Of a DNA stretch of 64,000 bases, positions 27,525-62,192 are shown piece by piece. Origin of the DNA: a virus. The position numbers were made by a program, and so were the translations under genes. The notes under the pieces were generated by a model. That model made no database searches. It had not been told where the DNA came from and saw only the letters and a list, made by a program, of their open reading frames with translations. The DNA lies in the UHGV virus genome UHGV-0294963; one strand, 5' to 3'. Within the stretch, counting starts at the first letter, position 1, and each line of letters opens with the position of its first letter.

Positions 27525-27580
27525 TCCTTTGTTGTTATCGTATCTATATTATAACATATTTCTGTTAACTCTACGAAGTT
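27525..27580 (-). promoter_or_regulatory. conserved early-type promoter element copy (AACTTCGT..TGTTATAATATAGATAC)
   Basis: + strand reads tcgtatctatattataacatatttctgttaactctacgaagtt. Upstream of the GIY-YIG gene. Confidence 0.55.
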
Positions 27581-27592
27581 ATAATAAAAACG

Positions 27593-27672
27593 GTTTTGCT
27601 TAAATGCTGTGACACTGCGTTATACTTTACACATACGCATATCGTGCATTTAAGCAAAACCGTAGTAGTTAC
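27593..27672. repeat. family C inverted repeat, 18 bp perfect arms ACGGTTTTGCTTAAATGC / GCATTTAAGCAAAACCGT with 39 bp spacer
   Basis: Seen directly, between the dut stop and the GIY-YIG promoter. Confidence 0.6.
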
Positions 27673-27687
27673 GGACTTTTCGTAGTT

Positions 27688-28128
27688 TTATACGCCGGTA
27701 GACCCAAAACCACCATCACCCCTGTCGGTGTCAGAGAGTTCATCCACTTCCTCAAAGTCGGCTCGAGTAATACCGAGAACGACGAGTTGAGCAATACGGT
27801 CTCCGTCCTTAATGTGCGCAGGGAACTGACCATGATTGATAAGCGGTACGATAATCTCGCCTCGATAGTCAGAATCAACCAGACCGATTGAGTTGATTAG
27901 AGTCACACCTTGCTTGGTTGCAAGACCAGAACGAGGAAATAGACAGAGAGCTACATCATTGTCCTCGGGTGCAGCACTGATTCCTGTAGATACTTTCTGA
28001 ATCTGACCTGGATTGATTACAAGCTCTCCTGCTGGAATATCTGCGTAGATATCATACCCAGCGGCTTGGGTAGAACCTTGAGTCGGGAGCGTAGCAGTTT
28101 CACTGAGTTTCTTGATACGAATTTTCAT
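27688..28128 (-). CDS. dut: dUTP pyrophosphatase (trimeric dUTPase)
   Basis: 146 aa. All conserved dUTPase motifs are present (AGYDI, PRSGLA, GLVDSDYRGE, RIAQLV, DRGDGGFGSTG). RBS is AAGGAGGAC. Confidence 0.95.
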   Translation of the reverse strand: MKIRIKKLSETATLPTQGSTQAAGYDIYADIPAGELVINPGQIQKVSTGISAAPEDNDVALCLFPRSGLATKQGVTLINSIGLVDSDYRGEIIVPLINHGQFPAHIKDGDRIAQLVVLGITRADFEEVDELSDTDRGDGGFGSTGV

Positions 28129-28142
28129 GTTAATAGTCCTCC

Positions 28143-28451
28143 TTAGATGTGTCTTTCAGAACGATACTTCTGCTTGATGTTCGGGTATTTTTCATGGTCT
28201 ACCTCAGACATGAACATATCGAGAGGACGGGCTGCAACGTCGACACCTTCGAGACAGGGAGGATTGTACAGCGGCTTATACAGCACCAGGATTTCACCAG
28301 TCTCTGTGTGCTTAGCAGTACCGATAAGTACGAACAGGTACTCGGTACTATTCTGGTCTTCCACGGTTTCACGTTTGAAATGGCGAATGACATCGCCAAC
28401 CTTAAATCTGTCTTTGAACATAATTCTTAAGCTCCTTTTGTTTAGTTTCAA
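28143..28451 (-). CDS. hypothetical protein
   Basis: 102 aa ORF. Confidence 0.4.
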   Translation of the reverse strand: MKLNKRSLRIMFKDRFKVGDVIRHFKRETVEDQNSTEYLFVLIGTAKHTETGEILVLYKPLYNPPCLEGVDVAARPLDMFMSEVDHEKYPNIKQKYRSERHI

Positions 28452-28686
28452 GATATTCTGAACGGGTTTTTGTCAAGTCCATCAATTCATTGAATAACAA
28501 GAACGTATCTAACTGGTCTCCGTCGAATTTAATGCTATATGGCTGACTGGTTATATCAGTAATCACGACTTCGATTGACTTAACCCGATTCGCACGTACA
28601 TCGAGCTCGCTTACTAGATTTACGAGCTTGTCCCATCCATCTTTATGCTCGGTTAGAACACCTAACATCCACTCCTCGTTCGTCAT
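28402..28686 (-). CDS. hypothetical protein
   Basis: 94 aa ORF. Confidence 0.4.
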   Translation of the reverse strand: MTNEEWMLGVLTEHKDGWDKLVNLVSELDVRANRVKSIEVVITDITSQPYSIKFDGDQLDTFLLFNELMDLTKTRSEYLETKQKELKNYVQRQI

Positions 28687-28708
28687 TCTAGACTCTTTTC
28701 TAAGGAAA

Positions 28709-28732
28709 TAGAAGCGTGCTTGAACACGCTTC
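28709..28732 (-). terminator. candidate terminator hairpin after ligase gene
   Basis: 9 bp stem AGAAGCGTG/CACGCTTCT with loop CTTGAA, followed on the - strand by ATTTCCTT, which is a weak T tract. Confidence 0.4.
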
Positions 28733-28753
28733 TATCTATTATAAATACCGGTA

Positions 28754-30478: not shown

Positions 30479-30480
30479 TC

Positions 30481-30702
30481 TTAACCTCCTAGAATTAGAG
30501 CTTCACGCTCTTTTACTTTTTCAACGATGCTAGACCAAGACAGTTCTTTATCTGGGTAACTGTCTATATAGAATTCAACATCGTTATAGACATAGTAGAT
30601 GTGATATATGCGAGACTGGGTAGCCTTATCCCATAGCGTCTTGCATCGCCAAGGACCTAAGCAATTATCCTTCATCTGTAACCTCTCTGACTTCCACGTC
30701 AT
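30481..30702 (-). CDS. hypothetical protein (alternative frame to 30661..30832; one of the two may be spurious)
   Basis: 73 aa ORF directly upstream of the ligase. Confidence 0.3.
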   Translation of the reverse strand: MTWKSERLQMKDNCLGPWRCKTLWDKATQSRIYHIYYVYNDVEFYIDSYPDKELSWSSIVEKVKEREALILGG

Positions 30703-30832
30703 CGTAGTCGGTATGAGCTATCGGTCGCCGCATAGCGCGGTCGAATTCAGGCAATGCCTTATCGACAGCTTCTTCTTCATCTTCTGCTTCTACTTCGATA
30801 GAAGTACATTGATAGAACGTAACGCAGTAGGT
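30661..30832 (-). CDS. small acidic protein (57 aa, below ORF-table cutoff)
   Basis: ATG at 30832 is preceded by GAAAGGAGTG. Sequence is MKTYCVTFYQCTSIEVEAEDEEEAVDKALPEFDRAMRRPIAHTDYDDVEVREVTDEG. Found by reading the sequence manually. Confidence 0.35.
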
Positions 30833-30856
30833 TTTCATCAGAACACTCCTTTCTTC

Positions 30857-30905
30857 CCCCTATGTGCTATTACATTCAATATTATAACACATAGGAGGTG
30901 TGGCA
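30857..30905 (-). promoter_or_regulatory. degenerate copy of conserved promoter element
   Basis: + strand reads caatattataacacataggaggtgtggcatacgaagtt. The downstream conserved part is truncated. Confidence 0.35.
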
Positions 30906-30917
30906 TACGAAGTTTCA

Positions 30918-31679: not shown

Positions 31680-32163
31680 CTGGAGCTCCTTTCGGCTTTA
31701 CACAAGGCTGCCATCCAAGAACATCGACAAGGTCGACATAATAGGAATCGCAGTCGAAATCCTGGTCTTCAGTTCGGTACCAACCGACGTGGTATTCACC
31801 ACTGTTATCGTAGAAGAATACGGTCTGTTCATTATCAGGTGTCTTTACAGCAGGGTCAATCCACGCATCAACCAAACCTTTCGCATAACCAGCGGTCCAA
31901 CCAGCTTTGAATGGGTAGTCTTCTCGACAAGATTTAACTGGTAGATTTTCGTACCTATTCTTCAGGCGAGAAACCTGTCGCTTAAGGTTAGCAATTTCTT
32001 TCTTGCAGTTCTTCACCTTAGCTGTTTCTTTAAGAAGTATCGGCTGTAATGCTTCAGTCATCGCATCGCATCCTGCATTTCGAGCAAGCTGTCTCTGCTC
32101 ATCGATATAAGATTGAATCCGTTGTTCAGGAACTTCTTTATTGTCTATCCACATCGCATTCAC
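31660..32163 (-). CDS. hypothetical protein
   Basis: 167 aa ORF. Confidence 0.45.
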   Translation of the reverse strand: MNAMWIDNKEVPEQRIQSYIDEQRQLARNAGCDAMTEALQPILLKETAKVKNCKKEIANLKRQVSRLKNRYENLPVKSCREDYPFKAGWTAGYAKGLVDAWIDPAVKTPDNEQTVFFYDNSGEYHVGWYRTEDQDFDCDSYYVDLVDVLGWQPCVKPKGAPDAAEID

Positions 32164-32543
32164 CTCCGTGCAGGATGATTATCTCGCGCTACAAATCTGA
32201 TATCAAGCTGTTCACCAGTCTTGGTGTTAACCAGACCGTTAAAATTCTTACTAACATCGACATGGCAATTCTTAAGGATATACCTGATTATTTCAGCACC
32301 AGACATATAATGCTGTTTGTAGACAGTACCACCAAGTGAGAGCTGATATACGCCGAACCTGTCGATACCCAGAACAAGCTGAATAAATGTAATCTCTTCA
32401 AGAACTGTGCGGTTAGCACGAGTTTCGTATCCTGACTTACCAATCGCCCGATAGTACCAAGATGTATCACCTTCAAGCGAGCCTCTGGTTGCTGACAGGT
32501 ATAGATAATTAAGAGCCGCTTGAATTTGAGTTGATGGTTGCAT
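32160..32543 (-). CDS. hypothetical protein
   Basis: 127 aa with RBS AAAGGAGGAAG. Confidence 0.45.
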   Translation of the reverse strand: MQPSTQIQAALNYLYLSATRGSLEGDTSWYYRAIGKSGYETRANRTVLEEITFIQLVLGIDRFGVYQLSLGGTVYKQHYMSGAEIIRYILKNCHVDVSKNFNGLVNTKTGEQLDIRFVARDNHPARR

Positions 32544-32557: not shown

Positions 32558-32608
32558 TTTATTTATTGTATCTATATTATAACACATTCCTGCGTGTGTT
32601 ACGAAGTT
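32558..32608 (-). promoter_or_regulatory. conserved promoter element copy
   Basis: tttattgtatctatattataacacattcctgcgtgtgttacgaagtt. Confidence 0.6.
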
Positions 32609-33392: not shown

Positions 33393-33593
33393 TTATCCTA
33401 ATAAGTCCCAGAACTCTTTAGAAGTAATCTGGTATATCTTAGTCGAGTCATAGGCATCGGTGATGACTACCTCTCCATTCTGCTCATACATGGAAATGAG
33501 CAATCCAGTACTGTCTTTCGGGTTACCACCGACTTTGCTGTCCTGGATGCGGTTTTCTTCTTTTAGCTCACGTCGTATAGGTAAATCCTTCAT
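33393..33593 (-). CDS. hypothetical small protein
   Basis: 66 aa ORF. Confidence 0.4.
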   Translation of the reverse strand: MKDLPIRRELKEENRIQDSKVGGNPKDSTGLLISMYEQNGEVVITDAYDSTKIYQITSKEFWDLLG

Positions 33594-34455
33594 GATAAAC
33601 CCCCTCCTTGATGGGCAAGACTACAATGTCGTGATTGCAAGCAGAAGCATGGTTGTTCGCCATATCAATAAATACAGATATTTCGCTAAATTCAACCGAA
33701 CTGTTACTTATCAGCTTTAAGCCTACAGTATCTCCCCAAACGAACAAAGTACCCGCCGGTAAAGTCGAAAAGGTCTGCTTGGTACGTTCTTTGTCAGAAA
33801 TAACCTTAACCTTGATATTAGAAGAAACCGTTCTGAGCTTATAGTAATCCATATCTACAATATTAGATTCATACGCTGCAGGGTGCTTTACCCAATCACC
33901 GTCTACCCGGTTGTCTTTTATCTTAATGCCTATCAGATTATACCAGCGGAATACAGCACCTACCGGTAATTCTGAGAACGAAATATCACCCTCCCAGTCT
34001 TCCTTCAGCTTCTCGATTTCAGATTGACTCAACGGCTTCACCCACAAGTCGGTTCGAGAGGTAATTCGATGTCCGTTGTCTAAACGAATAATATTTCCTT
34101 GATGCTTGGGCGACTTATCAGTGATAATCTCATTCGTGAGTTTTCTGAACAGCTTACCACCGAAGTTAAAGATAGTGCCTACAGGGACTTTCTCGAGAGG
34201 AAGCATACCACGCATCGCCTGATATCTCTTCTTATCGATTTTGCAGCCAGGGTATGCTTTTTCGATAGCAGCTACAATTTCGGTATTTATCTGTTCGGTG
34301 TTGGTGCAACCAGAAGCAGAATACCAGTCGTCGCCTAGGAAGTAATGACATAGTTCATCAAGAGCAACCTGAGCTTTCATTGGTGGTGCAAATATACCAT
34401 AATCACCAGGTTCGCATAAACTCAAAATACGGTCTCTGTCAAATTTCTTGTGCAT
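33568..34455 (-). CDS. hypothetical protein
   Basis: 295 aa ORF. Confidence 0.5.
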   Translation of the reverse strand: MHKKFDRDRILSLCEPGDYGIFAPPMKAQVALDELCHYFLGDDWYSASGCTNTEQINTEIVAAIEKAYPGCKIDKKRYQAMRGMLPLEKVPVGTIFNFGGKLFRKLTNEIITDKSPKHQGNIIRLDNGHRITSRTDLWVKPLSQSEIEKLKEDWEGDISFSELPVGAVFRWYNLIGIKIKDNRVDGDWVKHPAAYESNIVDMDYYKLRTVSSNIKVKVISDKERTKQTFSTLPAGTLFVWGDTVGLKLISNSSVEFSEISVFIDMANNHASACNHDIVVLPIKEGVYHEGFTYTT

Positions 34456-34465: not shown

Positions 34466-34903
34466 TTAGAACATCATCGGTTTACTCTTACCTGCTATCT
34501 CCTGCAGCTCTGAGTAAGAAATTCTGAACCCTAGCTGCTCCTCTTTGCAGTGCTCAATGAGCTCTTCATAAGTCATTTCGCCACTTGCAACCTTCAACGC
34601 AAGTCTGAGTTTTTCGATAGCAGCTTCGCCAGCACCCTCACCGTTATCGCGGTCATACAGACGAGTGTCGATTACATCAGGAGCGATGTCGATTTTCATT
34701 ACCTTACCGTTCAGGTAATCGAAATAGATTTCCTCCTCGCCGTTCCTGCCTGTATGACGAGCTTGCTTGATGAGCTCACCTGCTCTCCGAATATTCAACT
34801 TACCAGTATAGCCCAGAAAACTCATACCCTGCATTCTAGAATCGTTCCAGAGGGCTACAAGTACCTGAGCCTTATCCAAACCCCTGATATCCACCTTTGC
34901 CAT
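34466..34903 (-). CDS. hypothetical protein (start moved to MAKVD ATG; longer ORF-table N-terminus is translated promoter)
   Basis: The ORF-table version includes CYNIDTITHK, which is the promoter element. The true start has the RBS. Confidence 0.5.
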   Translation of the reverse strand: MAKVDIRGLDKAQVLVALWNDSRMQGMSFLGYTGKLNIRRAGELIKQARHTGRNGEEEIYFDYLNGKVMKIDIAPDVIDTRLYDRDNGEGAGEAAIEKLRLALKVASGEMTYEELIEHCKEEQLGFRISYSELQEIAGKSKPMMF

Positions 34904-34920
34904 AATGTATACCTCCTTGT

Positions 34921-34969
34921 GTGTTATTGTATCTATATTATAACACAGAATAACCGTGATTGCGAAGTT
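34921..34969 (-). promoter_or_regulatory. conserved promoter element copy
   Basis: gtgttattgtatctatattataacacagaataaccgtgattgcgaagtt. Confidence 0.6.
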
Positions 34970-37335: not shown

Positions 37336-37392
37336 GTGTTCTACACTTATCGTATCCACATTATAACATATTACAATGCGCAGTACGAAGTT
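37336..37392 (-). promoter_or_regulatory. conserved promoter element copy (variant)
   Basis: cttatcgtatccacattataacatattacaatgcgcagtacgaagtt. Confidence 0.5.
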
Positions 37393-38512: not shown

Positions 38513-38541
38513 GGTTATTCTCCTCTCGTCTTTTTACCTAC

Positions 38542-38976
38542 CTAGATATCCTCCGGATTGCCTGGACATATCGAACACCAGTAATCAGAACCCTCAAGAT
38601 ATTGAAACTTACAATCTAAGCAATTACCGTCTGGTTTGTTCATTTTGGTGCTTTGTTTAGCTACATTTCCCTCAGCATCACCGTCCATTCTTGCGCCGCA
38701 ATGTGGACAGAATTCGTAACCTTCGGATACCTTGACATATCTATTAGTGGACTCTTGTTCGCAGACAGAGCAATCCGCTTGATATACGTCAGATACATCA
38801 TTATAAAACTCAGATATCCACCTTCCATGCTTCACAAGCTGTACGTCTGCGGCGGAAACTTTCTGAACTTCTTTATCTATACCATCAAGCATTAGAATAG
38901 CACCCATATTTTGTAAACCCTGTCGATGCTTATAGATAATATCAGATACGCACTCACTACTTATATATTTAGCCAT
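38542..38976 (-). CDS. zinc-ribbon protein, paralog of next gene (start moved to MAKYISSE)
   Basis: C-terminal CPHCGARMDGDAEG is shared with the neighbouring CFGCGAKMDGDTDG. Confidence 0.45.
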   Translation of the reverse strand: MAKYISSECVSDIIYKHRQGLQNMGAILMLDGIDKEVQKVSAADVQLVKHGRWISEFYNDVSDVYQADCSVCEQESTNRYVKVSEGYEFCPHCGARMDGDAEGNVAKQSTKMNKPDGNCLDCKFQYLEGSDYWCSICPGNPEDI

Positions 38977-40170: not shown

Positions 40171-40395
40171 TTACTCGACCTCTTTCGTATCGAACACATC
40201 TGGTATGATTACGATAGCATCATCAGGCAATCCGCGTTGTCTTAGAACACTATGCCACCCATCCGGGTCACTTTCATACTGTCTACGAGTCAGATATAGA
40301 TATTCCTCTTCTGGCTGACCTGAATCATGGAACAGACGCTCAGCTGCCTGTTCGATTGCTTTCTTGAGCTTTTCCTTGTAATATTTGCTAGACAC
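40171..40395 (-). CDS. hypothetical small protein
   Basis: 74 aa ORF. Confidence 0.4.
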   Translation of the reverse strand: MSSKYYKEKLKKAIEQAAERLFHDSGQPEEEYLYLTRRQYESDPDGWHSVLRQRGLPDDAIVIIPDVFDTKEVE

Positions 40396-40408
40396 AGTAT
40401 CAACTCCT

Positions 40409-40453
40409 TTACTGTACCTATATTATAACATATTGCGGTGTGGGTAACGAAGT
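40409..40453 (-). promoter_or_regulatory. conserved promoter element copy
   Basis: ctgtacctatattataacatattgcggtgtgggtaacgaagtt. Confidence 0.55.
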
Positions 40454-40469
40454 TGCGAAGCACCGCATA

Positions 40470-41050
40470 AGCACTCTAAAATTCCAGAATTGTCAACCGC
40501 AAGCTAGGAGTCGGGACTTCTGATATAGAAACTTTTTGCGAGAAATCGTGCTAGCAGAAAACGGTATCTAGGATTCTGGGGGTGTGGATTACCTGACACG
40601 AGAAGCTGGGCTTTCGAAATCAAGGGAGTCAAGAACCAGGGCTGGGAGACCGAGGAGTAGGGTTCGTAACCGGGAGCTGGGAGGTAGGGGTAGGGGGTAA
40701 AGGGTAGGGGATAGGGGGTTTGGATATGGAGACTTTTTGCGAAATCAGTGTCGGAGAAAAAACGTAAAAAGCGGGTCCGTAGTATCGGAATACCGTTGAA
40801 AGGTATTTCAGGACCGGTATTTTCGGGCGATTATTTTAAGGTATCTACAGCAGAACTTCGGTATTTTCCTGGTTTTGTGTTATATAACACATCTAGCAGA
40901 ACGACTCGAAGCTCCTTGCTACCAGCCTGAACCTAGCACGCTAACGCACGCTAAGGGCTTGCTGCTAGACATATGTTATACATCGTAGCTATGTTACCCT
41001 TAGCGTGCGTTGTGCTGCTATGTGCTGCTTTAGCGCTCACGAGCTCGTTG
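40470..41050. other. ~580 bp non-coding region with G-quadruplex motif, direct repeats, iteron-like GGTATTT(T)C repeats and palindromes; candidate replication origin / regulatory hub
   Basis: The G4 motif is GGGAGGTAGGGGTAGGGGGTAAAGGGTAGGGGATAGGGGG at ~40675-40715. AGCTGGG is repeated. GAnACTTTTTGCGA(G)AAATC occurs as a direct repeat at ~40528 and ~40728. GTGTTATATAACAC is a 14 bp palindrome at ~40884. CGCACGCTAAGGG/CCCTTAGCGTGCG is a perfect inverted pair at ~40940-41020. Confidence 0.5.
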
Positions 41051-41600: not shown

Positions 41601-41656
41601 TTGTTTGTTTTTACTGTATCTATATTATAACACACGACGGTGGTTGAAACGAAGTT
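41601..41656 (-). promoter_or_regulatory. conserved promoter element copy
   Basis: tgtttgtttttactgtatctatattataacacacgacggtggttgaaacgaagtt. Confidence 0.6.
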
Positions 41657-41840: not shown

Positions 41841-41896
41841 AATCGTTTCCTCCTAAGCCTTATGCTTTCTTTTTCTGTTGTTTGTTTTACTGTATC

Positions 41897-41950
41897 TATA
41901 TTATAACATTTCTAGAATAGATTTACGAAGTTTGGAGTTACCAATTATAA
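41897..41950 (-). promoter_or_regulatory. conserved promoter element copy
   Basis: tgtttgttttactgtatctatattataacatttctagaatagatttacgaagtt. Confidence 0.6.
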
Positions 41951-42844: not shown

Positions 42845-42899
42845 TGTTGTTTTTATTGTATCTATATTATACAGGATGCGAGGTGGGAGTTACGAAGTT
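42845..42899 (-). promoter_or_regulatory. conserved promoter element copy
   Basis: ttttattgtatctatattatacaggatgcgaggtgggagttacgaagtt. Confidence 0.55.
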
Positions 42900-43436: not shown

Positions 43437-43496
43437 TTGTTTTATTGTATCTATATTATAACATATCTACACCTGCAATACGAAGTTTCCAGAACC
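43437..43496 (-). promoter_or_regulatory. conserved promoter element copy
   Basis: ttgttttattgtatctatattataacatatctacacctgcaatacgaagtt. Confidence 0.6.
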
Positions 43497-44278: not shown

Positions 44279-44330
44279 GTGTTTTATTGTGCTTACATTA
44301 TAACATGAATACGTCTGTATCACGAAGTTG
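44279..44330 (-). promoter_or_regulatory. conserved promoter element copy (tandem 1)
   Basis: gtgttttattgtgcttacattataacatgaatacgtctgtatcacgaagtt. Confidence 0.55.
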
Positions 44331-46355: not shown

Positions 46356-46403
46356 CGACTTGTTCTATTGTATCTTAATTATACAAGATTTCGGTAGTGG
46401 TTC
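46351..46403 (-). promoter_or_regulatory. conserved promoter element copy (variant)
   Basis: ttgttctattgtatcttaattatacaagatttcggtagtggttcacgaagtt. Confidence 0.5.
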
Positions 46404-46411
46404 ACGAAGTT

Positions 46412-46641: not shown

Positions 46642-46693
46642 CATGTTTTATTGTATCTATATTATAACACATTCAGACTGGGGATGCGAAGTT
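46642..46693 (-). promoter_or_regulatory. conserved promoter element copy (near-consensus)
   Basis: atgttttattgtatctatattataacacattcagactggggatgcgaagtt. Confidence 0.65.
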
Positions 46694-46945: not shown

Positions 46946-46996
46946 TGTGTTTTATTGTACCTATATTATAACATATCTGATGTGTAATTGCGAAGT
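46946..46996 (-). promoter_or_regulatory. conserved promoter element copy
   Basis: gtgttttattgtacctatattataacatatctgatgtgtaattgcgaagtt. Confidence 0.6.
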
Positions 46997-47006
46997 TACG
47001 CTCATC

Positions 47007-47226: not shown

Positions 47227-47277
47227 CTTGTTTTATTGTATCTATATTATAACACATCTAGAGTAGCATCCCGAAGT
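47227..47277 (-). promoter_or_regulatory. conserved promoter element copy
   Basis: cttgttttattgtatctatattataacacatctagagtagcatcccgaagtt. Confidence 0.6.
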
Positions 47278-47299
47278 TTCTGACACACCGGTGCTGTGG

Positions 47300-47989: not shown

Positions 47990-48047
47990 TGTTGTTTGTT
48001 TTACTGTACCTATATTATAACACAGCTGAAAATTGGATTACGAATTT
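47990..48047 (-). promoter_or_regulatory. conserved promoter element copy (ACGAATTTT variant)
   Basis: tgttgtttgttttactgtacctatattataacacagctgaaaattggattacgaatttt. Confidence 0.5.
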
Positions 48048-48091: not shown

Positions 48092-48658
48092 TTAGTCTTC
48101 TGCGAGAGCTTCGGTTTCTGCTGTTTCAGGAGCTTCCTCCTTCTCAGGCTCAGGGCGTACCCATGCACCGTTGTTCTCACCATTCTCGACTGCTGTAAGA
48201 ATAGTTCCGAACACTTCGAGTGCTACTGCTACACGCTCGCCCTTAGTGTCTGTTACCTTACAGTAGCGGTTGAACACATCTGACACTGTACTTGCTGTGC
48301 CACGTACTGCTCTATGCTCTTCGACACACTGAGCAATAATGCTAAGGTCAATGTATGAAATGAACTTATCGTTGCCAATAATTTCTGCAGCCTTAGTCGG
48401 GAGTTCTATTGCACAACCCTTTACTTTCTGAGTTGCATCGTCGTCGTTGACTTCGATAACGTTCCAAGCGAGTCTTGTGTTCTTGCCACGAGATGCTGTA
48501 ACAAGAAGCATCTGCTTAGGACCAGTAGGAGCTGCGACTTCTTCGATTACTTCTGCGGTTGTGCTGATTGTGTTCTCTACCATGGTAACATCCTCCTTGA
48601 TAACTTCTACAGTGTTCTCGATTGCCTGTGCGTTCTTCTTGATGTTCTTCTTTGCCAT
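48092..48658 (-). CDS. paralog family protein B
   Basis: 188 aa. Shares MLLVTASRGKNTRLAWNVIEV...KGCAIELPTKAAEIIGNDKFISY...AVRGTASTVSDVFNRYCKVT with 52552..53247. Confidence 0.55.
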   Translation of the reverse strand: MAKKNIKKNAQAIENTVEVIKEDVTMVENTISTTAEVIEEVAAPTGPKQMLLVTASRGKNTRLAWNVIEVNDDDATQKVKGCAIELPTKAAEIIGNDKFISYIDLSIIAQCVEEHRAVRGTASTVSDVFNRYCKVTDTKGERVAVALEVFGTILTAVENGENNGAWVRPEPEKEEAPETAETEALAED

Positions 48659-48700: not shown

Positions 48701-48756
48701 GTTGTTTGTTTTACTGTACCTATATTATACAACATCTAGGTACTGTTTACGAAGTT
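48701..48756 (-). promoter_or_regulatory. conserved promoter element copy (tandem 1)
   Basis: ttgtttgttttactgtacctatattatacaacatctaggtactgtttacgaagtt. Confidence 0.55.
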
Positions 48757-48812: not shown

Positions 48813-48867
48813 TTGTGTTTTATTGTATCTATATTATAACACTGCTAGATTTGGTTTCCGAAGTTCT
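48813..48867 (-). promoter_or_regulatory. conserved promoter element copy (tandem 2)
   Basis: gtgttgtgttttattgtatctatattataacactgctagatttggtttccgaagtt. Confidence 0.6.
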
Positions 48868-50344: not shown

Positions 50345-50395
50345 CTGTTTTATTGTATCTACATTATAACACGACTGAGGAGCGGATTCCGAAGA
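50345..50395 (-). promoter_or_regulatory. conserved promoter element copy (CCGAAGATT variant)
   Basis: ctgttttattgtatctacattataacacgactgaggagcggattccgaagatt. Confidence 0.5.
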
Positions 50396-50404
50396 TTTAT
50401 ACAC

Positions 50405-50470
50405 GGTATGGCTTAAATGCACGCAACGCAAATGTATAAACATATGTGCAAAGTAAGCAAAACCCAGCAG
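50405..50470. repeat. family C-like element (GGCTTAAATGCA ... TGTATAAACA ... AAGTAAGCAAAACC)
   Basis: Seen directly. It is followed by a CCAGCAG...CTGCTGG hairpin. Confidence 0.4.
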
Positions 50471-50821: not shown

Positions 50822-50873
50822 TTATGTTTTATTGTATCTATATTATAACACATTAAGGTGTGATTTACGAAGT
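50822..50873 (-). promoter_or_regulatory. conserved promoter element copy
   Basis: tttatgttttattgtatctatattataacacattaaggtgtgatttacgaagtt. Confidence 0.6.
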
Positions 50874-50894
50874 TATGAGTTAGTGGTGTACCAC

Positions 50895-51422: not shown

Positions 51423-51473
51423 TTGTGTTTACTGTACCTATATTATAACATATGCCAGGTGGCGTTACGAAGT
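51423..51473 (-). promoter_or_regulatory. conserved promoter element copy
   Basis: tttgtgtttactgtacctatattataacatatgccaggtggcgttacgaagtt. Confidence 0.6.
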
Positions 51474-51487
51474 TATCAATTTAGGGC

Positions 51488-51847
51488 TTAATAGCCCATA
51501 CCCTTGACAACCGCTTCGGCACACTCGTGAATGTACGCCTTGCCAGCGAATGTGTAGTGTTTCTGGTAAGCCTGCTGGGGACCTTCGATACCACAACCGT
51601 AATAGCCAGTCATGCACATAAACTCGATTTCGTCTACCAGCTCGTCGTGGTTGCTAAGAGACGCCTTGGCATCGATGTATTCCTCGTCAGCTTCGTCGTA
51701 GTCGCACAACGTGTTTTCAAGACCTCCGATGAGACTGCAGCCGGCGTAATACATATTAGCGAGAATCTCACGTTTACGGTCGTCGGTTGCCTTGATGGTT
51801 TTTACAAACTGCTGAGCCTCATGAATTTCTGTTCTTGGTCTATACAT
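51488..51847 (-). CDS. hypothetical protein
   Basis: 119 aa ORF. Confidence 0.45.
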   Translation of the reverse strand: MYRPRTEIHEAQQFVKTIKATDDRKREILANMYYAGCSLIGGLENTLCDYDEADEEYIDAKASLSNHDELVDEIEFMCMTGYYGCGIEGPQQAYQKHYTFAGKAYIHECAEAVVKGMGY

Positions 51848-51871: not shown

Positions 51872-51926
51872 GTTATTGTTTTATTGTACCTATATTATAA
51901 CATACTCAGAATAGGTAAACGAAGTT
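51872..51926 (-). promoter_or_regulatory. conserved promoter element copy
   Basis: ttattgttttattgtacctatattataacatactcagaataggtaaacgaagtt. Confidence 0.6.
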
Positions 51927-52551: not shown

Positions 52552-53247
52552 TTACGCTGCCTGGATGTCTTCGATTGCTATGCTGTCAACCTGGTCGTCA
52601 CCTTCCTCAGGAGCTTCGGTTTCCTGAGGACGCTCCCATCCACCGTTAGTGGTACCTGCTTCGATTTCTGCAAGGACCTCACGGAACACGTTATACACGG
52701 TGTTAACCTTATCTGCACCTTCGAGCTCTGTTACCTTGATGTAACGATTAAACACATCTGAAATTGTGCTTGCCATACCACGTACTGGCTTACCTTCGGC
52801 AACAAACTTCTCGACGATGTCCTGATCAAGCCAAGACACAAACTTGTTTGTGCCAATAGCTTCGGCAACCTGAGTTGGGAGGAGTGCTGCGCAGCCCTTA
52901 ACTTTAACAGTTTCGTCTGTTTCGGTAACCGGAATCTGGAACCATCTGAGGAATGTAGACTTGCCACGACTTGCAATGAACAAGAGTGTGTTCTTCGGTC
53001 CCTGTGCTTCCTCGAGTGCGTCGACCTCTGCCTGTGCTTCTTCGAGTGTTTCGATTGCTTCTACTACCTCTGTGTAAACGTTCTTCTCTGCCATATCTTT
53101 ATCCTCCTTAACAAATTCGGTTGTGATGTCGTTACCATTACAAGTTACAGACACGATTCCTTTGAGTGCCTTAACTGCTTTCTTGTTTGTGAGTGTCTCT
53201 ACAGTGCCGTTTGTGAGAGTTGCGATGTATGTATTCTTCTTAGCCAT
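52552..53247 (-). CDS. paralog family protein C
   Basis: 231 aa. The C-terminal 130 aa domain is shared with 48092..48658 and 43574..44248. Confidence 0.55.
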   Translation of the reverse strand: MAKKNTYIATLTNGTVETLTNKKAVKALKGIVSVTCNGNDITTEFVKEDKDMAEKNVYTEVVEAIETLEEAQAEVDALEEAQGPKNTLLFIASRGKSTFLRWFQIPVTETDETVKVKGCAALLPTQVAEAIGTNKFVSWLDQDIVEKFVAEGKPVRGMASTISDVFNRYIKVTELEGADKVNTVYNVFREVLAEIEAGTTNGGWERPQETEAPEEGDDQVDSIAIEDIQAA

Positions 53248-53290: not shown

Positions 53291-53341
53291 TTGTTTTATT
53301 GTATCTACATTATAACACACACGCCCACGCAAAAAGAAGTT
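53291..53341 (-). promoter_or_regulatory. conserved promoter element copy (tandem 1; AAGAAGTT variant)
   Basis: cttgttttattgtatctacattataacacacacgcccacgcaaaaagaagtt. Confidence 0.5.
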
Positions 53342-53380: not shown

Positions 53381-53436
53381 GTTGTGTTTTATTGTATCTA
53401 TATTATAACACTGCCAGACGTGGGTTCCGAAGATAA
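53381..53436 (-). promoter_or_regulatory. conserved promoter element copy (tandem 2)
   Basis: gtgttgtgttttattgtatctatattataacactgccagacgtgggttccgaagat. Confidence 0.55.
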
Positions 53437-53617: not shown

Positions 53618-53675
53618 AACTTCGTGATTTGTATATGAGACTGTTTATAATGTAGATACAGTTAAACAACTTCGT
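53618..53675 (+). promoter_or_regulatory. conserved promoter element copy in + orientation
   Basis: + strand reads aacttcgtgatttgtatatgagactgtttataatgtagatacagttaaaca. This is the same architecture as the - strand copies but inverted, and it faces the small + strand ORF. Confidence 0.5.
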
Positions 53676-53775: not shown

Positions 53776-53982
53776 ATGGAACAGATAATCCGTAGAAGGT
53801 ATTCCGAAGATTGTCAGGTACCTGCGGTGGCATTCGAGTGTTGGAAGACTGTTCTAACTCGATTTCGAACTTCGGCTTGGCAGAAGACGATTTTCGACAT
53901 ATCAGCGTGCGATAATTTTCCGGTGTCTGTTCTCCTTGCTACCACCCCTGTTCTCCCGAGTTTCCAGCCCGATTTGGAGTAG
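53776..53982 (+). CDS. small + strand protein (68 aa), candidate regulator
   Basis: ATG preceded by GCAGGAGGTGATAGA. Sequence begins MEQIIRRRYSEDCQVPAVAFECWKTV. It sits in the only + strand island of the - arm. Confidence 0.35.
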   Translation: MEQIIRRRYSEDCQVPAVAFECWKTVLTRFRTSAWQKTIFDISACDNFPVSVLLATTPVLPSFQPDLE

Positions 53983-55292: not shown

Positions 55293-55343
55293 TTGTTTTA
55301 TTGTATCTATATTATAACATAAATATAACACAGAAACGAAGTT
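55293..55343 (-). promoter_or_regulatory. conserved promoter element copy
   Basis: attgttttattgtatctatattataacataaatataacacagaaacgaagtt. Confidence 0.6.
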
Positions 55344-57773: not shown

Positions 57774-58529
57774 TTAGACAGTTTCTGCCGAGTCATTACG
57801 CTCACCGTCTTCAAGCTTGTCAACATCCTTAGCACGGCGTCTAACATTATCATGGAATTGCTTATAACGCTGATTGTATTCATCAGCGTCAATCGATGTA
57901 AATTGCTCATCGACTTCTTTGAAGTACCAATTCAGAACTTCAACCTTACCATCTGGGCACTTAACTGACTTGATTTCCATGGTGTCGAATTCACCAGGTA
58001 TACCGCTGACTGCGAAGTCGAACGCACTGACATAATATCTACCTGTAGGCCAATAAGGCATCTCGATAGGGTACATTTCAGAAATCTTTCTTGATACAAA
58101 GCCATTCGTCCAGCAGGTACCGGCACTATTCGTGCATACGACACGTTCTACGTCACTAAATGTAGCCTCGCCAGTCTTCTTGTCAACATCCTTGAACAGA
58201 GAGTGACAACGCTTGCATTGATACGTTGCTACATCATCAGTTTCGTGAATCAGGTTCCAGGATTCTGGTACGTCTTCGATAGGTGTCAGCGGATAACCAT
58301 CAAGCAGTCTCTTAAGAATACCTCGAGTTACGCCGAAGCTGTACCCGCTGTGCTTGTCTTCCATCAGTGACTTGTAAGCCTTAAGAGCGCTAGCATAGCA
58401 ACCTCCTGCGTACTGCTTACCCATCTCTTTCATATCTTCGTCTGTCTCTTCAGGGTCATTTTCTATGGCAGCGGTTTCACGCTTTAGTGCCAATTCAACT
58501 TCTTTTTCTGCCCATTCGGTCATACTCAT
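57774..58529 (-). CDS. hypothetical protein
   Basis: 251 aa. Has a CKRCHS...C...C cluster. Confidence 0.5.
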   Translation of the reverse strand: MSMTEWAEKEVELALKRETAAIENDPEETDEDMKEMGKQYAGGCYASALKAYKSLMEDKHSGYSFGVTRGILKRLLDGYPLTPIEDVPESWNLIHETDDVATYQCKRCHSLFKDVDKKTGEATFSDVERVVCTNSAGTCWTNGFVSRKISEMYPIEMPYWPTGRYYVSAFDFAVSGIPGEFDTMEIKSVKCPDGKVEVLNWYFKEVDEQFTSIDADEYNQRYKQFHDNVRRRAKDVDKLEDGERNDSAETV

Positions 58530-59700: not shown

Positions 59701-59789
59701 CTATATTCTCCTTTATGTAAGGGAGGTTATCTAGAATCCCTCCCGAAGCGTCTATATGAAGGTACCCTAATCTAGAATCGTTCGGCGAA

Positions 59790-60092: not shown

Positions 60093-60235
60093 CAGTCTCA
60101 TCTCCTTTCTAGAAAAATAATGGCGGGTATATCTAGCATTACCCGCCTTCGAGTACTTTGGAGGTTTTCCTATGGCTTGGGAAAACTGACCGGAAGCTAG
60201 AATCCGAAGAGATGTGGGCTTGGGAAAGCCCTGGT

Positions 60236-60306
60236 TGGGGCAGCGGGATTCGAACCCACGGAATGACAGAGTCAAAGTCTGTTGCCTTACCGCTTGGCTA
60301 TGCCCC
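60236..60306 (-). tRNA. tRNA-Gln (anticodon UUG)
   Basis: The revcomp reads GGGGCATAGCCAAGCGGTAAGGCAACAGACTTTGACTCTGTCATTCCGTGGGTTCGAATCCCGCTGCCCCA. The anticodon arm is ACAGA-CTTTGAC-TCTGT with U33 and A37. The T-arm is GTGGGTTCGAATCCCGC. The acceptor stem is 6 of 7 paired. No encoded CCA. Confidence 0.7.
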
Positions 60307-60341
60307 AGCAAGAATCCCAGTAGAACTGGGATAGATAAAAA

Positions 60342-60623: not shown

Positions 60624-60640
60624 CGTGTACCTCCTACACA

Positions 60641-60690
60641 TTTAATATTGTAAGTATATTATAACACGCATTAACCACGAAAACGAAGTT
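60641..60690 (-). promoter_or_regulatory. conserved promoter element copy (variant)
   Basis: tttaatattgtaagtatattataacacgcattaaccacgaaaacgaagtt. Confidence 0.5.
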
Positions 60691-60700
60691 GTGCGTGTAC

Positions 60701-60926
60701 CTACTTGGAATGAAGTCCTGACTGTCTGTTCAGTTCTGCTTCATTCCAGATAAATGACGTTCCCGTACCTACGATACCTAATATCTTGAAGTCAGGGCGA
60801 TAGGGGATTACGAAGTCTACGTCCTGATACTCAAAGGTTCCATCATCGTTCTTCGAGGCTATCAGCACGGAGATATCTCCGTGCTCCGCCATAGTAGATA
60901 CAAGATTCTTAATCAGTGTTGACATT
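60701..60926 (-). CDS. hypothetical protein (start near MLMSTLIK; upstream part of ORF-table entry overlaps next gene out of frame)
   Basis: Start site is uncertain. Confidence 0.35.
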
Positions 60927-61352
60927 AGCATTGTCATCATCCTCCTTGTCGTTTGCTGGTGTGAATTTACCAGGAAATTCATGTATTCCTTGTGCAAGCA
61001 TATCTGCAAAGACTTTGTCAAGTCCTGTCGCCTCAAGCTGATGTGCTGTAGAATCGATGCACATCTGACGCTGCACTGACTTCATAAAATCGGTAAAAGC
61101 TTCGTGCAAGCCATTGACATACTTGTCTACCTCTGCTTCTGCTTCAGGTGTAACTTCTTTTACCTTCGGCATCGGTGTAATACTGTCTACGCAGTGCAGT
61201 AGAAGGTCAGATACCGTATGAACTAAACCTTCATACATATCACTAATACTGCACTGAGAACGCATCAGAGTGCCTTTATCTGTGAACACCATTGTGTAGT
61301 ATCCGTTGTTCGGTTCTGTGCAGATTACAGTAATAGAGCTTCCATCAATCAT
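60909..61352 (-). CDS. hypothetical protein
   Basis: 147 aa with an acidic C-terminus. Confidence 0.45.
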   Translation of the reverse strand: MIDGSSITVICTEPNNGYYTMVFTDKGTLMRSQCSISDMYEGLVHTVSDLLLHCVDSITPMPKVKEVTPEAEAEVDKYVNGLHEAFTDFMKSVQRQMCIDSTAHQLEATGLDKVFADMLAQGIHEFPGKFTPANDKEDDDNANVNTD

Positions 61353-61363
61353 AAGATTTCACC

Positions 61364-61609
61364 TCACTTATCATATGTCTCATCAACATCACCTTCAGGA
61401 TAATAGCAATTGGTACGAATCCAATCATTCTTCTGATAGGTGTCGAGTCGATAGCAGTACGTGTCACCATACGGTTCTTTGCTGATGATGACATTTTCAC
61501 CTCTATCATTGACGCACGCTGCAGGAAGCTGAGTATCAGAACAGAATACTTCTAGCGTAGCAAACGATATAGGTGAACATACAGTTCTAGGTATTGTGTT
61601 AGAATTCAC
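61364..61609 (-). CDS. hypothetical small protein
   Basis: 81 aa ORF. Confidence 0.4.
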   Translation of the reverse strand: MNSNTIPRTVCSPISFATLEVFCSDTQLPAACVNDRGENVIISKEPYGDTYCYRLDTYQKNDWIRTNCYYPEGDVDETYDK

Positions 61610-61840
61610 CTGGGATTACTCCTTTCGAACGTATCCACTTTTATTATGTGCCCTGAGCATCCTCCAGCAGCTATTACAGCACTCAACTGGTCAGGGCATA
61701 TCTTCCAAAAATAAGCTTGATTGTGCTGAGTGGTTATGTACACGATGTAGCTACCTCGATTACATCGCAATTCACAAGGGAAATCGTGTATAACCAAATC
61801 ACCATTCACCAGTACCGGCTGCTTCATACGCTTAAACCCT
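61606..61840 (-). CDS. hypothetical protein (3' portion of ORF 61606..62049; probable internal start)
   Basis: Overlaps 61832..62113 in another frame. Only the downstream part looks coding. Confidence 0.3.
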
Positions 61841-62113
61841 ATCGACATATGTATGAACGCAGTCATTGAGAACATACCAGAGTAGTGACATGAACTCAAA
61901 TCCATCGTGGTTCTGACTAACTTCCTCGACGTTAGTATGTTCCCAGATATCTTGAGCCACCTTGACGAAGTCGTCATCAGTTCTTGCTGATTTTGCCTTG
62001 ATGAACATATCAGAGTAATTCTCATTCGAACCCCATGTATAGAGTCCATACCGAATACAAACTCCTCTAAGCTCGCTGATATTGAGTTTTCTTTCGATTT
62101 TAATACCGTCCAT
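61832..62113 (-). CDS. hypothetical protein
   Basis: 93 aa ORF directly downstream of a promoter copy. Confidence 0.45.
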   Translation of the reverse strand: MDGIKIERKLNISELRGVCIRYGLYTWGSNENYSDMFIKAKSARTDDDFVKVAQDIWEHTNVEEVSQNHDGFEFMSLLWYVLNDCVHTYVDRV

Positions 62114-62138
62114 ATCTAGCCTCCCAGCATATAGTTGA

Positions 62139-62192
62139 TTGTGTTTTATTGTATCTACATTATAACATATACCAGAGGACCGAAACGAAGTT
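62139..62192 (-). promoter_or_regulatory. conserved promoter element copy
   Basis: ttgtgttttattgtatctacattataacatataccagaggaccgaaacgaagtt. Confidence 0.6.

Follow-up and report, generated by a model that had tools for sequence, protein, structure and literature searches.

We identified a promoter cassette of ~50 bp, present in 30 copies among the early genes of a novel circular myovirus (~150.5 kb, T4-like capsid), an uncultivated phage from a human-gut metagenome. Each copy is probably a strong early phage promoter, fired by the host primary sigma-A RNA polymerase (RNAP) through a Gram-positive extended -10 (T-R-T-G-n-TATAAT). The 30 copies lie between positions 27,531 and 62,192 of the window, the 64,000-nucleotide stretch of phage DNA analysed here, and at least ten related uncultivated phages hold more than 300 further copies. 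The cassette is specific to phages: it was not found as a repeat in 185,579 bacterial species genomes, where the scan returned 35 scattered single matches, equal to the chance expectation, and the downstream core occurred in none.

The consensus reads AACTTCG(T)-N16/17-T(R)TGTTATAAT-ATAG(A/G)TACA(A/G)TAAAACA, with 29 copies on the minus strand and one on the plus strand against a chance expectation of 0. This total allows four mismatches and includes the copy at 30,864-30,914, which was added. The earlier note on this DNA had counted at least 29 copies, and its count and coordinates were correct. The 18-nt core TGTTATAATATAGATACA has 26 matches at ≤3 mismatches (0.11 expected) and the 26-nt core has 18 (0 expected). 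The box AACTTCGT occurs 22 times, compared with 2.1 expected, and 21 of the 22 occurrences are at elements. Of the 30 copies, 21 carry this box unchanged, 25 have an exact TGTTATAAT and 20 show 0-2 mismatches in the 18-nt core. The spacer between the box and TGT measures 16 nt (23 copies) or 17 nt (7 copies). Several predicted proteins had been suspected of beginning with translated element, and artefactual ORF N-termini that read CYN(I/V)(D/G)T(I/V) are indeed present at 21 copies, in all three frames. The analysis likewise supports the description of the element as non-coding, gene-proximal, orientation-locked and promoter-type.

All 30 copies are upstream of, and co-oriented with, ORFs bearing GGAGG ribosome sites. 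The predicted 5' UTRs before GGAGG span 20-168 nt (most 20-60), and the preceding ORF often has its stop codon within 0-20 nt of the box or overlapping it. The genes behind the cassettes include anti-defence genes (Tad8, Tad3), a dUTPase, a ligase and many ORFans; in the flanks, cassettes also precede an SbcCD-like operon and a sigma operon. A frequency of roughly one element per early gene, as first proposed, holds only in 40-55.4 kb (25 copies, ~30 ORFs) and fails for 27.5-62.2 kb overall, where 30 copies at 27 promoter positions serve ~76 ORFs. Because the cassettes sit between tightly packed small genes, mostly with no terminator between them, transcription may be additive along the gene array. 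The repeats may also act as occasional joints at which gene cassettes are gained and lost, as at the indel described below.

The minus-strand copies begin at 27,531-27,580 (box AACTTCGT, N16, TGTTATAAT, TACGAT), upstream of a GIY-YIG-like gene (27,056-27,514). The copy at 30,864-30,914, before ORF 30,665-30,838, has an exact box and TGTTATAAT with N17 and a diverged downstream part (ATTGAATGTAA). Box and core are both exact, with N16, at 32,559-32,608 (before ORF 32,160-32,543). The copy at 34,920-34,969 (box AACTTCGC, N16) runs over the stop codon of the ORF before it and precedes 34,466-34,903 and the operon of the Tad8-like gene, and that at 37,343-37,392 (exact box, N16, core TGTTATAATGTGGATACG) has a leader of 80 nt. 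The shortest leader follows 40,405-40,454, where the Shine-Dalgarno sequence (SD) begins 3 nt past the TACAGT hexamer (before ORF 40,171-40,395). Further copies are at 41,607-41,656 (exact box, N16, TACAGT), at 41,883-41,932, ~25 nt downstream of a terminator-like hairpin (41,987-41,958), and at 42,849-42,899 (N17, CTGTATAAT). Exact consensus matches occur at 43,438-43,487, 50,825-50,874 and 55,294-55,343. The copy at 44,817-44,866 is a AAGCACAAT variant before 44,428-44,793; the upstream stop codon adjoins the box at 46,361-46,411 (N17, TTGTATAAT) and is overlapped by the element at 46,644-46,693 (box AACTTCGC). Box variants are also carried at 46,948-46,997 (AACTTCGC), at 47,229-47,278 (AACTTCGG), downstream of a terminator-like hairpin (47,561-47,544), at 47,997-48,047 (AAATTCGT, N17) and at 50,346-50,396 (ATCTTCGG, N17), where a degenerate version of the inverted-repeat motif GCATTTAAGC lies ahead of the element. 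The last two copies are a ATACTTACAAT variant at 60,641-60,690 and an N17 copy at 62,142-62,192, before ORF 61,832-62,113.

Three tandem doublets, reported previously at 44.3/44.4, 48.7/48.8 and 53.3/53.4 kb, are present upstream of three paralogous genes. The first pairs a proximal copy at 44,280-44,329, before paralog 43,574-44,242, with a distal copy at 44,372-44,421 (TGTTACAAT, CACAGT). The second pairs 48,707-48,756 (TTGTATAAT, before paralog 48,092-48,658) with 48,816-48,865 (box AACTTCGG), and the third pairs 53,292-53,341 (box AACTTCTT, before paralog 52,552-53,247) with 53,385-53,434 (box ATCTTCGG). Divergent from the third doublet is the sole plus-strand copy, also seen before, at 53,618-53,668; it has a weaker core (GTTTATAAT) and TACAGT and lies upstream of plus-strand ORF 53,776-53,982. 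A second AACTTCGT box follows this copy, at 53,668-53,675.

We compared the element at orthologous sites of the relatives (n=66). Identity is 92% in the box, 62% in the spacer, 90% in the -10 block (TGnTATAAT) and 91% in the downstream TACAnT (62% at its free fifth position), compared with 75-82% in the coding flanks. This pattern is one of purifying selection on the box, the -10 block and TACAnT, and it bears out the earlier description of a conserved AACTTCGT box. The box and the -10 are coupled: their spacing is 16/17 nt in >95% of >250 copies, and 279 of the 366 exact AACTTCG sites in family loci have a -10 matching at least 5/6 at 19-22 nt, the other 87 being about the number that chance would give.

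The -10 half is the Firmicute sigma-A extended -10 (TRTGnTATAAT), which gives good support to the promoter reading; the extended -10 that had been proposed is in fact present in its full Gram-positive form. Among 239 box-anchored family copies, the base frequencies are 0.82 for T at -17, 0.88 for R at -16, 0.90 for T at -15 and 0.83 for G at -14, and those of TATAAT are 0.92-1.00. TRTG is reportedly the '-16 region' of Gram-positive sigma-A promoters, as described by Voskuil and Chambliss in 1998. That the early anti-defence genes Tad3 and Tad8 lie behind these promoters argues for firing at time zero by host RNAP without help from phage factors. Which polymerase acts and where transcription begins are both predictions from sequence alone.

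The box, at about -39 to -33 and 19-20 bp from TATAAT, would occupy the place of a -35 hexamer. That it is not a sigma-70 (TTGACA-type) -35, as the earlier note held, is confirmed: its best match to TTGACA is 4/6, reached in just 2 of 30 copies and only at 18-bp spacing, and its own spacing exceeds the norm by 2-3 bp. A small RNA of the same phage and its relatives retains a canonical TTGACT-17-TGTTATAAT promoter. The box may be where a dedicated protein docks and makes contact with the bound polymerase. We tentatively favour a phage-specified positive factor or sigma domain as the most likely reader. Pfam and PHROG searches of every ORF between 27 kb and the end of the window (64 kb), and Pfam on eight right-flank ORFs (NCBIfam on four), gave no candidate box-binding protein: no MotA, AsiA or HTH regulator was found.

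Two other readings of the box are less likely, and we give each a modest chance. The box could be an operator through which a phage repressor jointly shuts off the early promoters at the early-to-late switch, the promoter itself needing only the extended -10. A perfect TRTGnTATAAT suffices for sigma-A initiation without a -35, which is also established knowledge in a T4 review (PMC2988021), a protein on the box would clash with sigma region 4, and the box marks one promoter class, from which the small RNA, with its canonical TTGACT promoter, is distinct. However, the near-constant 16/17-nt spacing favours an RNAP-contacting partner over a steric block, and the scanned ORFs (Pfam/PHROG, 27-64 kb) include no repressor candidate. 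The box also accompanies weaker, non-extended -10s, as in ACCTTCGT-N18-TAAAAT ahead of gene 4602-5150 and AACTTCGT-N20-TATAAT ahead of DNA polA.

Similarly doubtful is the reading in which host sigma-A RNAP reads the box directly by a non-canonical contact, or in which the box has no transcriptional role and is kept uniform by PeSL-like spread and homogenisation of cassettes. TTCG(T/C)A matches TTGACA at 3-4 of 6 positions at 18 bp, and private variants are common to neighbours, such as AAGCACAAT at 44.3-44.8 kb. Gene 51,488-51,847 and one element are missing from the relative L061 as one clean cassette indel that falls exactly between two copies, 51,425-51,474 at its downstream edge and 51,877-51,926 at its upstream edge. 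Homology breakpoints occur at 20 of 26 element-bearing gene junctions and 24 of 49 element-free ones (Fisher p=0.027); with gene junctions as control, breakpoint density is 16.6 compared with 13.8 per kb. By that control, a role in recombination is only modestly supported. Yet the spacer is not homogenised (62% at orthologous sites, no consensus), so the conservation reflects position-specific selection rather than copy-paste, and lineages with proteins as far apart as 40-55% identity all have the same invariant box. Nor would a host that reads TTGACT explain why another 7-mer should be fixed at a site 2-3 bp too far upstream.

Beyond the window, at a distance of 1.4 kb, is a phage sigma-70-family gene (198 aa; Sigma70_r2 E=4e-13; TIGR02937 58.8 bits, cut-off 42.9). 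In a dual-sigma promoter, the box would be the -35-type element of this sigma and GTTATA, inside TGTTATAAT, its -10; host sigma-A would act first through the extended -10 and the phage sigma would then take over by positive feedback. We regard this as unlikely, but several observations fit it. The sigma gene is close to the window and is conserved in all box-carrying lineages, and its operon is itself behind a box-type promoter. With GTTATA as the -10, the box hexamer CTTCGT falls at the canonical 17/18-bp spacing. Sigma-A recognition leaves unexplained the T at -13, the 'n' of TGn, which is conserved as strongly as TG (0.85 in the 239 family copies); this would suit GTTATA, a -10 used by TcdR-group sigmas (PMC4031146), and the frequent variant TGTTATACT retains GTTATA. 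On the other hand, A-8 and T-7 of TATAAT, outside GTTATA, are 92-98% conserved, and the predicted region 4.2 recognition helix of the sigma varies (QPQVSRLSTRAK, QAMACRLSVRAR, QPQIARYRKKFR, QSSVSKIIRKGR) while the box is invariant in the same genomes. The phage sigma has homologues in this phage group only, with no detectable relationship to TcdR and no SRQ motif, and it has a separate candidate late motif, TGTATAWTAGAAC. Early anti-defence genes are also needed before any phage sigma is present.

If sigma-A uses TATAAT, transcription most likely starts ~7 nt past it, at the A of TACA, and every early mRNA would open with TACA(A/G)TAAAACA as its first 11-12 nt, ahead of a G-poor leader, the GGAGG ribosome site and the gene. 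The earlier note had called this stretch a conserved initially transcribed region. That it is transcribed stands, as ribosome sites occur from 3 nt after it and none inside it; its conserved positions are better described as another -10-like hexamer, TACA(A/G)T, whose -14 equivalent is G. This block (G-n-TACAnT) may tune initiation or escape, or cause a sigma-dependent promoter-proximal pause. The conserved C at the third position of TACAnT is not required by a -10-like function. That TACAAT is instead the working -10, or one of tandem promoters, with starts ~11 nt further downstream and AAAACA as discriminator, is quite unlikely. It begins 11 bp, one helical turn, after the start of TATAAT, its -14-equivalent G is 98% conserved at orthologous sites, and a full TGnTACAAT or TGnTATAAT is found in ~20 family copies (the full TGnTACAAT in ~20 copies in relatives). 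But in roughly a third of copies a start ~7 nt later would lie within the SD or beyond it, no conserved partner lies upstream at -35 distance, and the first base is C in three window copies. Among 216 copies, no SD starts before element position 22 and 72 start by position 30, so only the first hexamer can give an SD-bearing mRNA.

It is highly improbable that the element is no promoter but a MITE-like miniature mobile element or a recombinase site: the copy number is high and the box is identical to 8-11 nt of a loxP arm (half-site ATAACTTCGTATA), but no terminal inverted repeats or inverted partner box were found, AACTTCGT is on the plus strand only at the single plus-strand promoter, the spacer is variable, and the MITE context raised earlier is contradicted by strict orientation and distance to genes and by the absence of the repeat from the scanned bacterial genomes.

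We compared the cassette with known systems, of which T4 early and middle promoters and PeSL cassettes appear to be the closest analogues. Strong phage early promoters (T4 early 'über', T5 N25, T7 A1, SPO1 early) have a recognisable -35 (GTTTAC/TTGACA) and UP elements. The gut-phage promoters resemble them in their many copies, conservation well beyond two hexamers, extended -10 and conserved initial transcribed region, and would likewise outcompete host promoters for unmodified host polymerase, whereas an unrelated invariant 7-mer stands in for the -35. Sigma-70-dependent promoter-proximal pause elements are known from lambda PR', phage 82 and lacUV5. In them, too, the earliest transcribed nucleotides contain a hexamer resembling a -10 on the non-template strand, roughly one helical turn beyond the true -10, and some gut-phage copies share the TG extension; there, however, one late promoter is concerned, compared with ~30 promoters per window here, where pausing, a Q-like antiterminator and a Q-binding element would all be putative.

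Promoters of TcdR-group (group 5) clostridial sigmas have a -35 TTTACA and a -10 GTTATA (PMC4031146). The gut phage shares GTTATA inside TGTTATAAT and a small phage-encoded sigma, but the -35 is unrelated and the sigma has neither the SRQ motif nor specific similarity to the group. T4 middle promoters, which work by sigma appropriation, combine a MotA box with a sigma-70 -10 and use AsiA/MotA (PMC2988021). Both systems have dozens of copies ahead of prereplicative genes, an excellent -10 of the host type that often carries TGn, a phage-specific box that replaces the -35, and a CTT core in that box. The MotA box, (a/t)(a/t)TGCTT(t/c)a, is however centred at -30, 11-13 bp from the -10 (PMC2988021), whereas AACTTCG is centred at ~-36, 19-20 bp away; MotA/AsiA homologues were not found in the genome parts examined, and the gut-phage promoters drive immediately required genes (anti-Thoeris).

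The earlier view of an unusually modular, per-gene programme overstated its novelty, as such cassettes are known in T4-type phages as promoter-early and promoter-middle stem-loops (PeSL/PmSL; Arbiol 2010; Comeau 2014, PMC4122927). The gut-phage cassette differs in having no systematic stem-loop (hairpin test around and upstream of the box, p=0.13), a terminator or large inverted repeat ahead of only ~5-7 copies, an upstream box of different sequence and position, a small breakpoint excess over ordinary gene junctions and a host predicted to be Gram-positive-type. As in PeSLs, a conserved promoter followed by SD and start codon lies between small ORFans in a plastic early region, the capsid genes of the phage are T4-like, and copies mark indel edges between close relatives (here cassette 51,488-51,847); as in PmSLs, a non-sigma-70 upstream box is combined with a -10.

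The repeat is real and lies where the earlier note had placed it. The 18-nt core TGTTATAATATAGATACA matched 26 times with at most three mismatches, compared with 0.11 matches expected from dinucleotide shuffles, and a 26-nt core matched 18 times where none was expected. The sequence AACTTCGT was found 22 times (2.1 expected), and 21 of these matches are at elements. Looser matching, together with one copy whose downstream half has diverged, brought the total to 30 copies between 27,531 and 62,192. As claimed, nearly all of them are on the - strand (29 copies), the single + copy being at 53,618-53,668. The AACTTCG(T) box is exact in 21 of the 30 copies and is separated from the TGT of the core by 16 nt in 23 copies and 17 nt in 7. 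Within the core, TGTTATAAT is exact in 25 copies and TATAAT in 29, the remaining one reading TACAAT.

The downstream ORF is co-oriented with the element in all 30 copies, and the predicted 5' UTR ahead of GGAGG is 20-168 nt long, mostly 20-60 nt. An early-type promoter followed by a Shine-Dalgarno (SD) sequence and a start codon is repeated through a hyperplastic region of small ORFs, most of which have no family match. The three reported doublets each precede one paralogous gene (43574-44242, 48092-48658 and 52552-53247); a confident structure model of this paralog family returned no structural neighbour. Artefactual ORF starts made of the translated element, CYN(I/V)(D/G)T..., do occur, at 21 copies and in all three frames. 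The density of one element per early gene holds within 40-55.4 kb only; over the whole region, about 76 ORFs share 27 promoter positions. The box is often overlapped by the upstream stop codon or lies 0-20 nt from one, so most copies would have no preceding terminator, and a minority follow a terminator-like hairpin or a GCTTAAATGC/GCATTTAAGC inverted repeat. Two ORF-poor gaps of about 450-600 nt interrupt the early region (40,455-41,050 and 38,513-38,968), the first of which is not conserved in the closest relative. Outside the 30 counted copies, a degenerate element-like sequence, CACTTCGA-N16-TGTGATAAT-ATCTATACT, lies at 1,983-2,032 (-) inside the + ORF 1903-2196, and could represent either the remains of a copy or a promoter in antisense orientation.

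We found no close relative of the window among GenBank phages. Its 2-27 kb region encodes a T4-type major capsid protein (PF07068), a T4-type portal, a sheath and a terminase, and an HU-like DNA-binding protein (PF00216; 5,261-5,536) is among these late genes. The early-type region after 27 kb encodes an NAD ligase, a dUTPase, a radical-SAM protein, an HD phosphohydrolase, tRNA-Gln (UUG; 60,232-60,307, -) and dozens of ORFans, and the first gene driven by the leftmost element resembles a GIY-YIG homing endonuclease (27,056-27,514, -). Homologues of the Thoeris inhibitors Tad8 and Tad3 (33,568-34,455 and 57,774-58,529) are in the element-driven early region, as is a Tad2-like gene just outside the window (2,882-3,346 of sequence L131). 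The capsid protein is about 30% identical to counterparts in Bacillus, Listeria and Streptococcus myoviruses and the ribosome sites are GGAGG, so the host is probably a Firmicute. The exact sequence is on ENA contig ERZ28657755 ZELL14-1...scaffold_36 (150,573 bp); sample names suggest that this contig came from a gut metagenome and that of a relative from a sewage metagenome. The window spans both ends of the contig, which overlap by 55 bp, implying a circular or circularly permuted genome of about 150.5 kb. Beyond the left window edge, the + strand carries DNA polymerase A, genes resembling SbcCD and one for an AP endonuclease, which converge with the late genes.

A pattern scan of IMG/VR recovered the arrangement of box and TGTTATAAT, many times over, in at least 10 uncultivated contigs of 78-167 kb that are 65-90% identical to the window in patches. 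Including the window, this gave about 310 distinct copies; the stretches retrieved from each genome contain 22-40 of them. In more diverged lineages the box and TGTTATAAT persist while the downstream part drifts. At 66 orthologous sites, identity is 92% in the box, 62% in the spacer, 90% in TRTG plus TATAAT, 91% in TACAnT (62% at its fifth position) and 88% in the following AAAACA, compared with 75-82% in coding flanks. These block and spacer identities point to position-specific selection on three blocks, not simple repeat copying.

To keep the -10 side unbiased, we derived base frequencies from 239 family copies anchored on the exact box alone. These copies have T at -17 (0.82), A or G at -16 (0.88), T at -15 (0.90) and G at -14 (0.83), followed by TATAAT at 0.92-1.00 per position. 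Judged by these frequencies, the -10 half has the form of an extended -10 with the TRTG "-16 region" that is reportedly typical of Gram-positive sigma-A promoters. Extended -10 promoters can dispense with a -35 element (PMC2988021). The extended -10, the gene context and the leader distance support the promoter interpretation well, and we regard the element as very probably a promoter. Since the cassettes drive anti-defence genes, which are needed at once, host sigma-A polymerase is the most economical reader, and the cassette would then be an early promoter fired by that enzyme.

The block downstream of the core had been described as an initially transcribed region that is conserved. With element positions numbered from the T of TGT, the SD sequence never starts before position 22, and it has started by position 30 in 72 of 216 copies. 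Only transcription set by the first hexamer, with a predicted start near position 15 (the A of TACA), would give mRNAs that contain their ribosome site, so the block is presumably transcribed, and that part of the description stands; its conserved positions are also those of a -10 element, which the description had not captured. The second hexamer, TACA(A/G)T, would span roughly -1 to +5. Conservation of its T, A and final T is 79-86% across the family and reaches 98% at orthologous sites, its fifth position is free, and a G two bases upstream, equivalent to -14, is 98% conserved at orthologous sites. About 20 copies from relatives have a complete second extended -10 in this block (for example, TGTTATAAT-AG-TGATACAAT). 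Lambda PR' reportedly carries a -10-like pause-inducing sequence, and the second hexamer of the cassette is at the same position. It might plausibly act in sigma-dependent pausing, or in start-site choice and escape; a -10-like role does not account for the conserved C of TACA.

In effect, the box consists of seven bases, AACTTCG, located at about -39 to -33, and it is not a sigma-70 -35 hexamer, as had been recognized. Its best alignment to TTGACA, TTCG(T/C)A at 18 bp, matches at 3-4 of 6 positions, and with 19-20 bp between box end and TATAAT it is 2-3 bp farther from TATAAT than a proper -35. The phage and its relatives also use a canonical promoter, TTGACT-17-TGTTATAAT, for a conserved candidate small RNA. 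Thus, the host presumably reads ordinary -35 elements and the box would mark a separate promoter class. The small-RNA locus (49,437-49,285, -) would give an ORF-less transcript of about 120 nt ending in a strong terminator hairpin. Its sequence is conserved in five relatives, has a 5' hairpin and a single-stranded ACCCCCAACCUUGACG stretch and has no Rfam match; we consider it a candidate phage small RNA, possibly an anti-SD one. A second terminator is nearby, at about 49,036-49,022.

The coupling between box and -10 is tight. A -10 matching at five or more of six positions lies at 19-22 nt from 279 of the 366 exact AACTTCG sites in family DNA, and the other 87 equal the chance expectation. We saw no avoidance of orphan boxes (12 AACTTCG sites outside elements, 8 expected). 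The box also precedes + genes to the left of the window, namely DUF932 and the SbcCD-like operon, and it is combined with a weaker -10 in two composite promoters, before DNA polymerase A and before gene 4602-5150, in both of which an inverted repeat GCTTAAATGC...GCATTTAAGC occupies the spacer. Because the spacing is strict and the box is also used with weaker -10s, we infer a partner in contact with RNA polymerase, a positive factor, rather than a simple steric repressor.

That this positive factor is specified by the phage is a serious possibility, though somewhat short of an even chance. Our fuller proposal, which we put forward tentatively and would sooner doubt than accept, is that a phage-specified protein reads the box in place of -35 recognition by sigma-A region 4, either as a "sigma appropriation" pair like MotA/AsiA, independently invented in a phage of Gram-positive gut bacteria, or as region 4 of a phage sigma acting on the same cassette, and that the -10-like start region adds a sigma-dependent pause or a handle for a conserved MazF-like protein. 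Profile searches of the early ORFs gave no candidate for the box reader, nor did the paralog family behind the doublets, and no MotA or AsiA homologue was found when the ORFs from 27 kb to the window end were searched with Pfam or PHROGs and eight ORFs from the right flank (9 kb) with Pfam. We found the motif described nowhere in the searchable literature.

The sigma-like factor that the earlier note had proposed to look for lies 1.4 kb past the right window edge, at the window-equivalent position 65,440-66,036. It is a 198-aa protein of the sigma-70 family (Sigma70_r2, E=4e-13; TIGR02937 above cut-off over the full length). The gene is second, after that for a 302-aa PemK/MazF-like protein and before a 70-aa ORF, in an operon (L131 6268-7976; window-equivalent about 66,934-65,226) that is kept in all related lineages examined. 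The PemK/MazF-like protein has a very conserved N-terminal domain and a variable C-terminal HTH-like tail. The operon promoter is itself a variant element of the box type, AACTTCGT-N17-TGTTATACT. Region 2 of the phage sigma resembles that of SigA with key -10-reading residues changed (WW to PC, Q to G and T to M), its homologues are confined to this phage group, and the recognition helix predicted in its region 4.2 is highly variable, in contrast to the invariant box. Given these features, the phage sigma more likely serves a later promoter class.

A candidate for that class is TGTATA(A/T)TAGAAC (also written TGTATAWTAGAAC), found directly before three late-region genes at 5,593-5,605, at 27,035-27,047 and, as the variant TGTATATTAGATT, at 21,418-21,430. 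The motif or a close variant also occurs at 28,733-28,745 on the - strand. It directly follows the preceding stop codon, has neither a box nor a shared -35, and is reminiscent of the T4 late TATAAATA. We treat it as a candidate late promoter that the phage sigma might read. Late-region genes and DNA polymerase A are also preceded by another repeat family, an inverted repeat whose arms, TTTTGCTTAAATGC and GCATTTAAGCAAAA, are separated by 35-45 nt and enclose TGTAAAGTTATACAC (10 matches, 0.6 expected). It occurs at 5,184-5,251, 15,232-15,245, 22,667-22,680, 27,594-27,659 and 50,407-50,420, and at 7,610-7,675 of sequence L135; two occurrences overlap a box-type promoter, and two are followed closely by an early element. 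Its function may be to bind a regulator or to form a hairpin in RNA.

One rival makes the cassette a dual-sigma promoter, fired first by host sigma-A and then taken over by the phage sigma, which would read the box with GTTATA as its -10. This reading puts the box hexamer at the canonical 17/18 bp and fits the T at -13 (0.85), which is otherwise unexplained. TcdR-group sigmas use a -35 of TTTACA and a -10 of GTTATA and carry an SRQ motif in region 4.2 (PMC4031146). The cassette core contains GTTATA but lacks TTTACA, and the phage sigma has LSQPQVSR in place of the SRQ motif, with no specific match to the TcdR group. We consider the dual-sigma promoter unlikely. The C-terminal HTH of the PemK-like protein was rejected as box reader because it is the least conserved part of that protein. 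A MazF/PemK-like RNase that cuts UACA leaders and spares late mRNAs was likewise rejected: no leader 4-6-mer is depleted in late genes, where TACAAT occurs 20 times (15 expected). An ECF-type reading of the box (AAC motif) does not fit the spacing to any -10 candidate, and a loxP-like recombinase site, suggested by a match of the box to the loxP arm, lacks the inverted partner.

An origin as a MITE, which the earlier note had named among refuting outcomes, or from bacteria was rejected too: the box has no inverted partner, the gene context is strict, and the repeat as such was not found in 185,579 bacterial species genomes. In these genomes, we detected 35 scattered single hits, the number expected by chance, none of them with the downstream core or homology to the window. 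One clean cassette indel was seen, in which gene 51488-51847 and one element copy, exactly between two copies, are missing in a relative (L061). Compared with a uniform background, breakpoints in the homology between window and relatives are enriched 3.6-fold at distances of up to 30 nt from an element, an effect that becomes modest with gene junctions as the control: there are 16.6 breakpoints per kb at element junctions, 13.8 at element-free junctions and 3.6 inside genes. A breakpoint is present at 20 of 26 element-bearing and 24 of 49 element-free junctions (Fisher p=0.027). Most of the excess is a gene-junction effect.

An invariant 7-mer that replaces the -35, and a -10-like start region, recur in more than 300 promoters of at least 10 phage genomes, and together with the nearby conserved operon of a MazF-like protein and a phage sigma these promoters form a compact system. 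If the box is read by a phage-specified factor, the phage would own a promoter class that the host can neither use nor mimic. In annotating this phage group, the element can serve as a precise marker of early genes and true start codons, and it is a candidate for a strong, portable promoter in Gram-positive hosts. Whether it is more than a promoter family of a known type would depend on what reads the box.

Strong early-promoter families and gene-shuffling promoter cassettes are well known in T4-type coliphages; to our knowledge, almost nothing is known of transcription in large uncultivated gut Firmicute phages. The cassette works like T4 early promoters and the PeSL cassettes of T4-type phages. 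With the latter (PMC4122927) it shares its architecture of promoter, SD sequence, start codon and small ORFs, but the likeness in recombination is weak and a systematic stem-loop upstream of the promoter is absent: cognate sequences flanking the box pair no better than shuffled pairs of flanks (mean stem 5.0 vs 4.8 bp; permutation p=0.13). The modularity of the transcription programme is not unprecedented, given the PeSL cassettes (PMC4122927). The -10-like hexamer in the first transcribed bases is a feature that the cassette has in common with sigma-dependent promoter-proximal pause elements. Like T4 middle promoters, the cassette combines an excellent sigma-70 -10 with a phage box in place of the -35. 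The MotA box of T4, (a/t)(a/t)TGCTT(t/c)a (PMC2988021), is centred at -30, 11-13 bp from the -10, whereas AACTTCG(T) ends 19-20 bp from TATAAT. The box of the cassette differs from the MotA type in both sequence and position.
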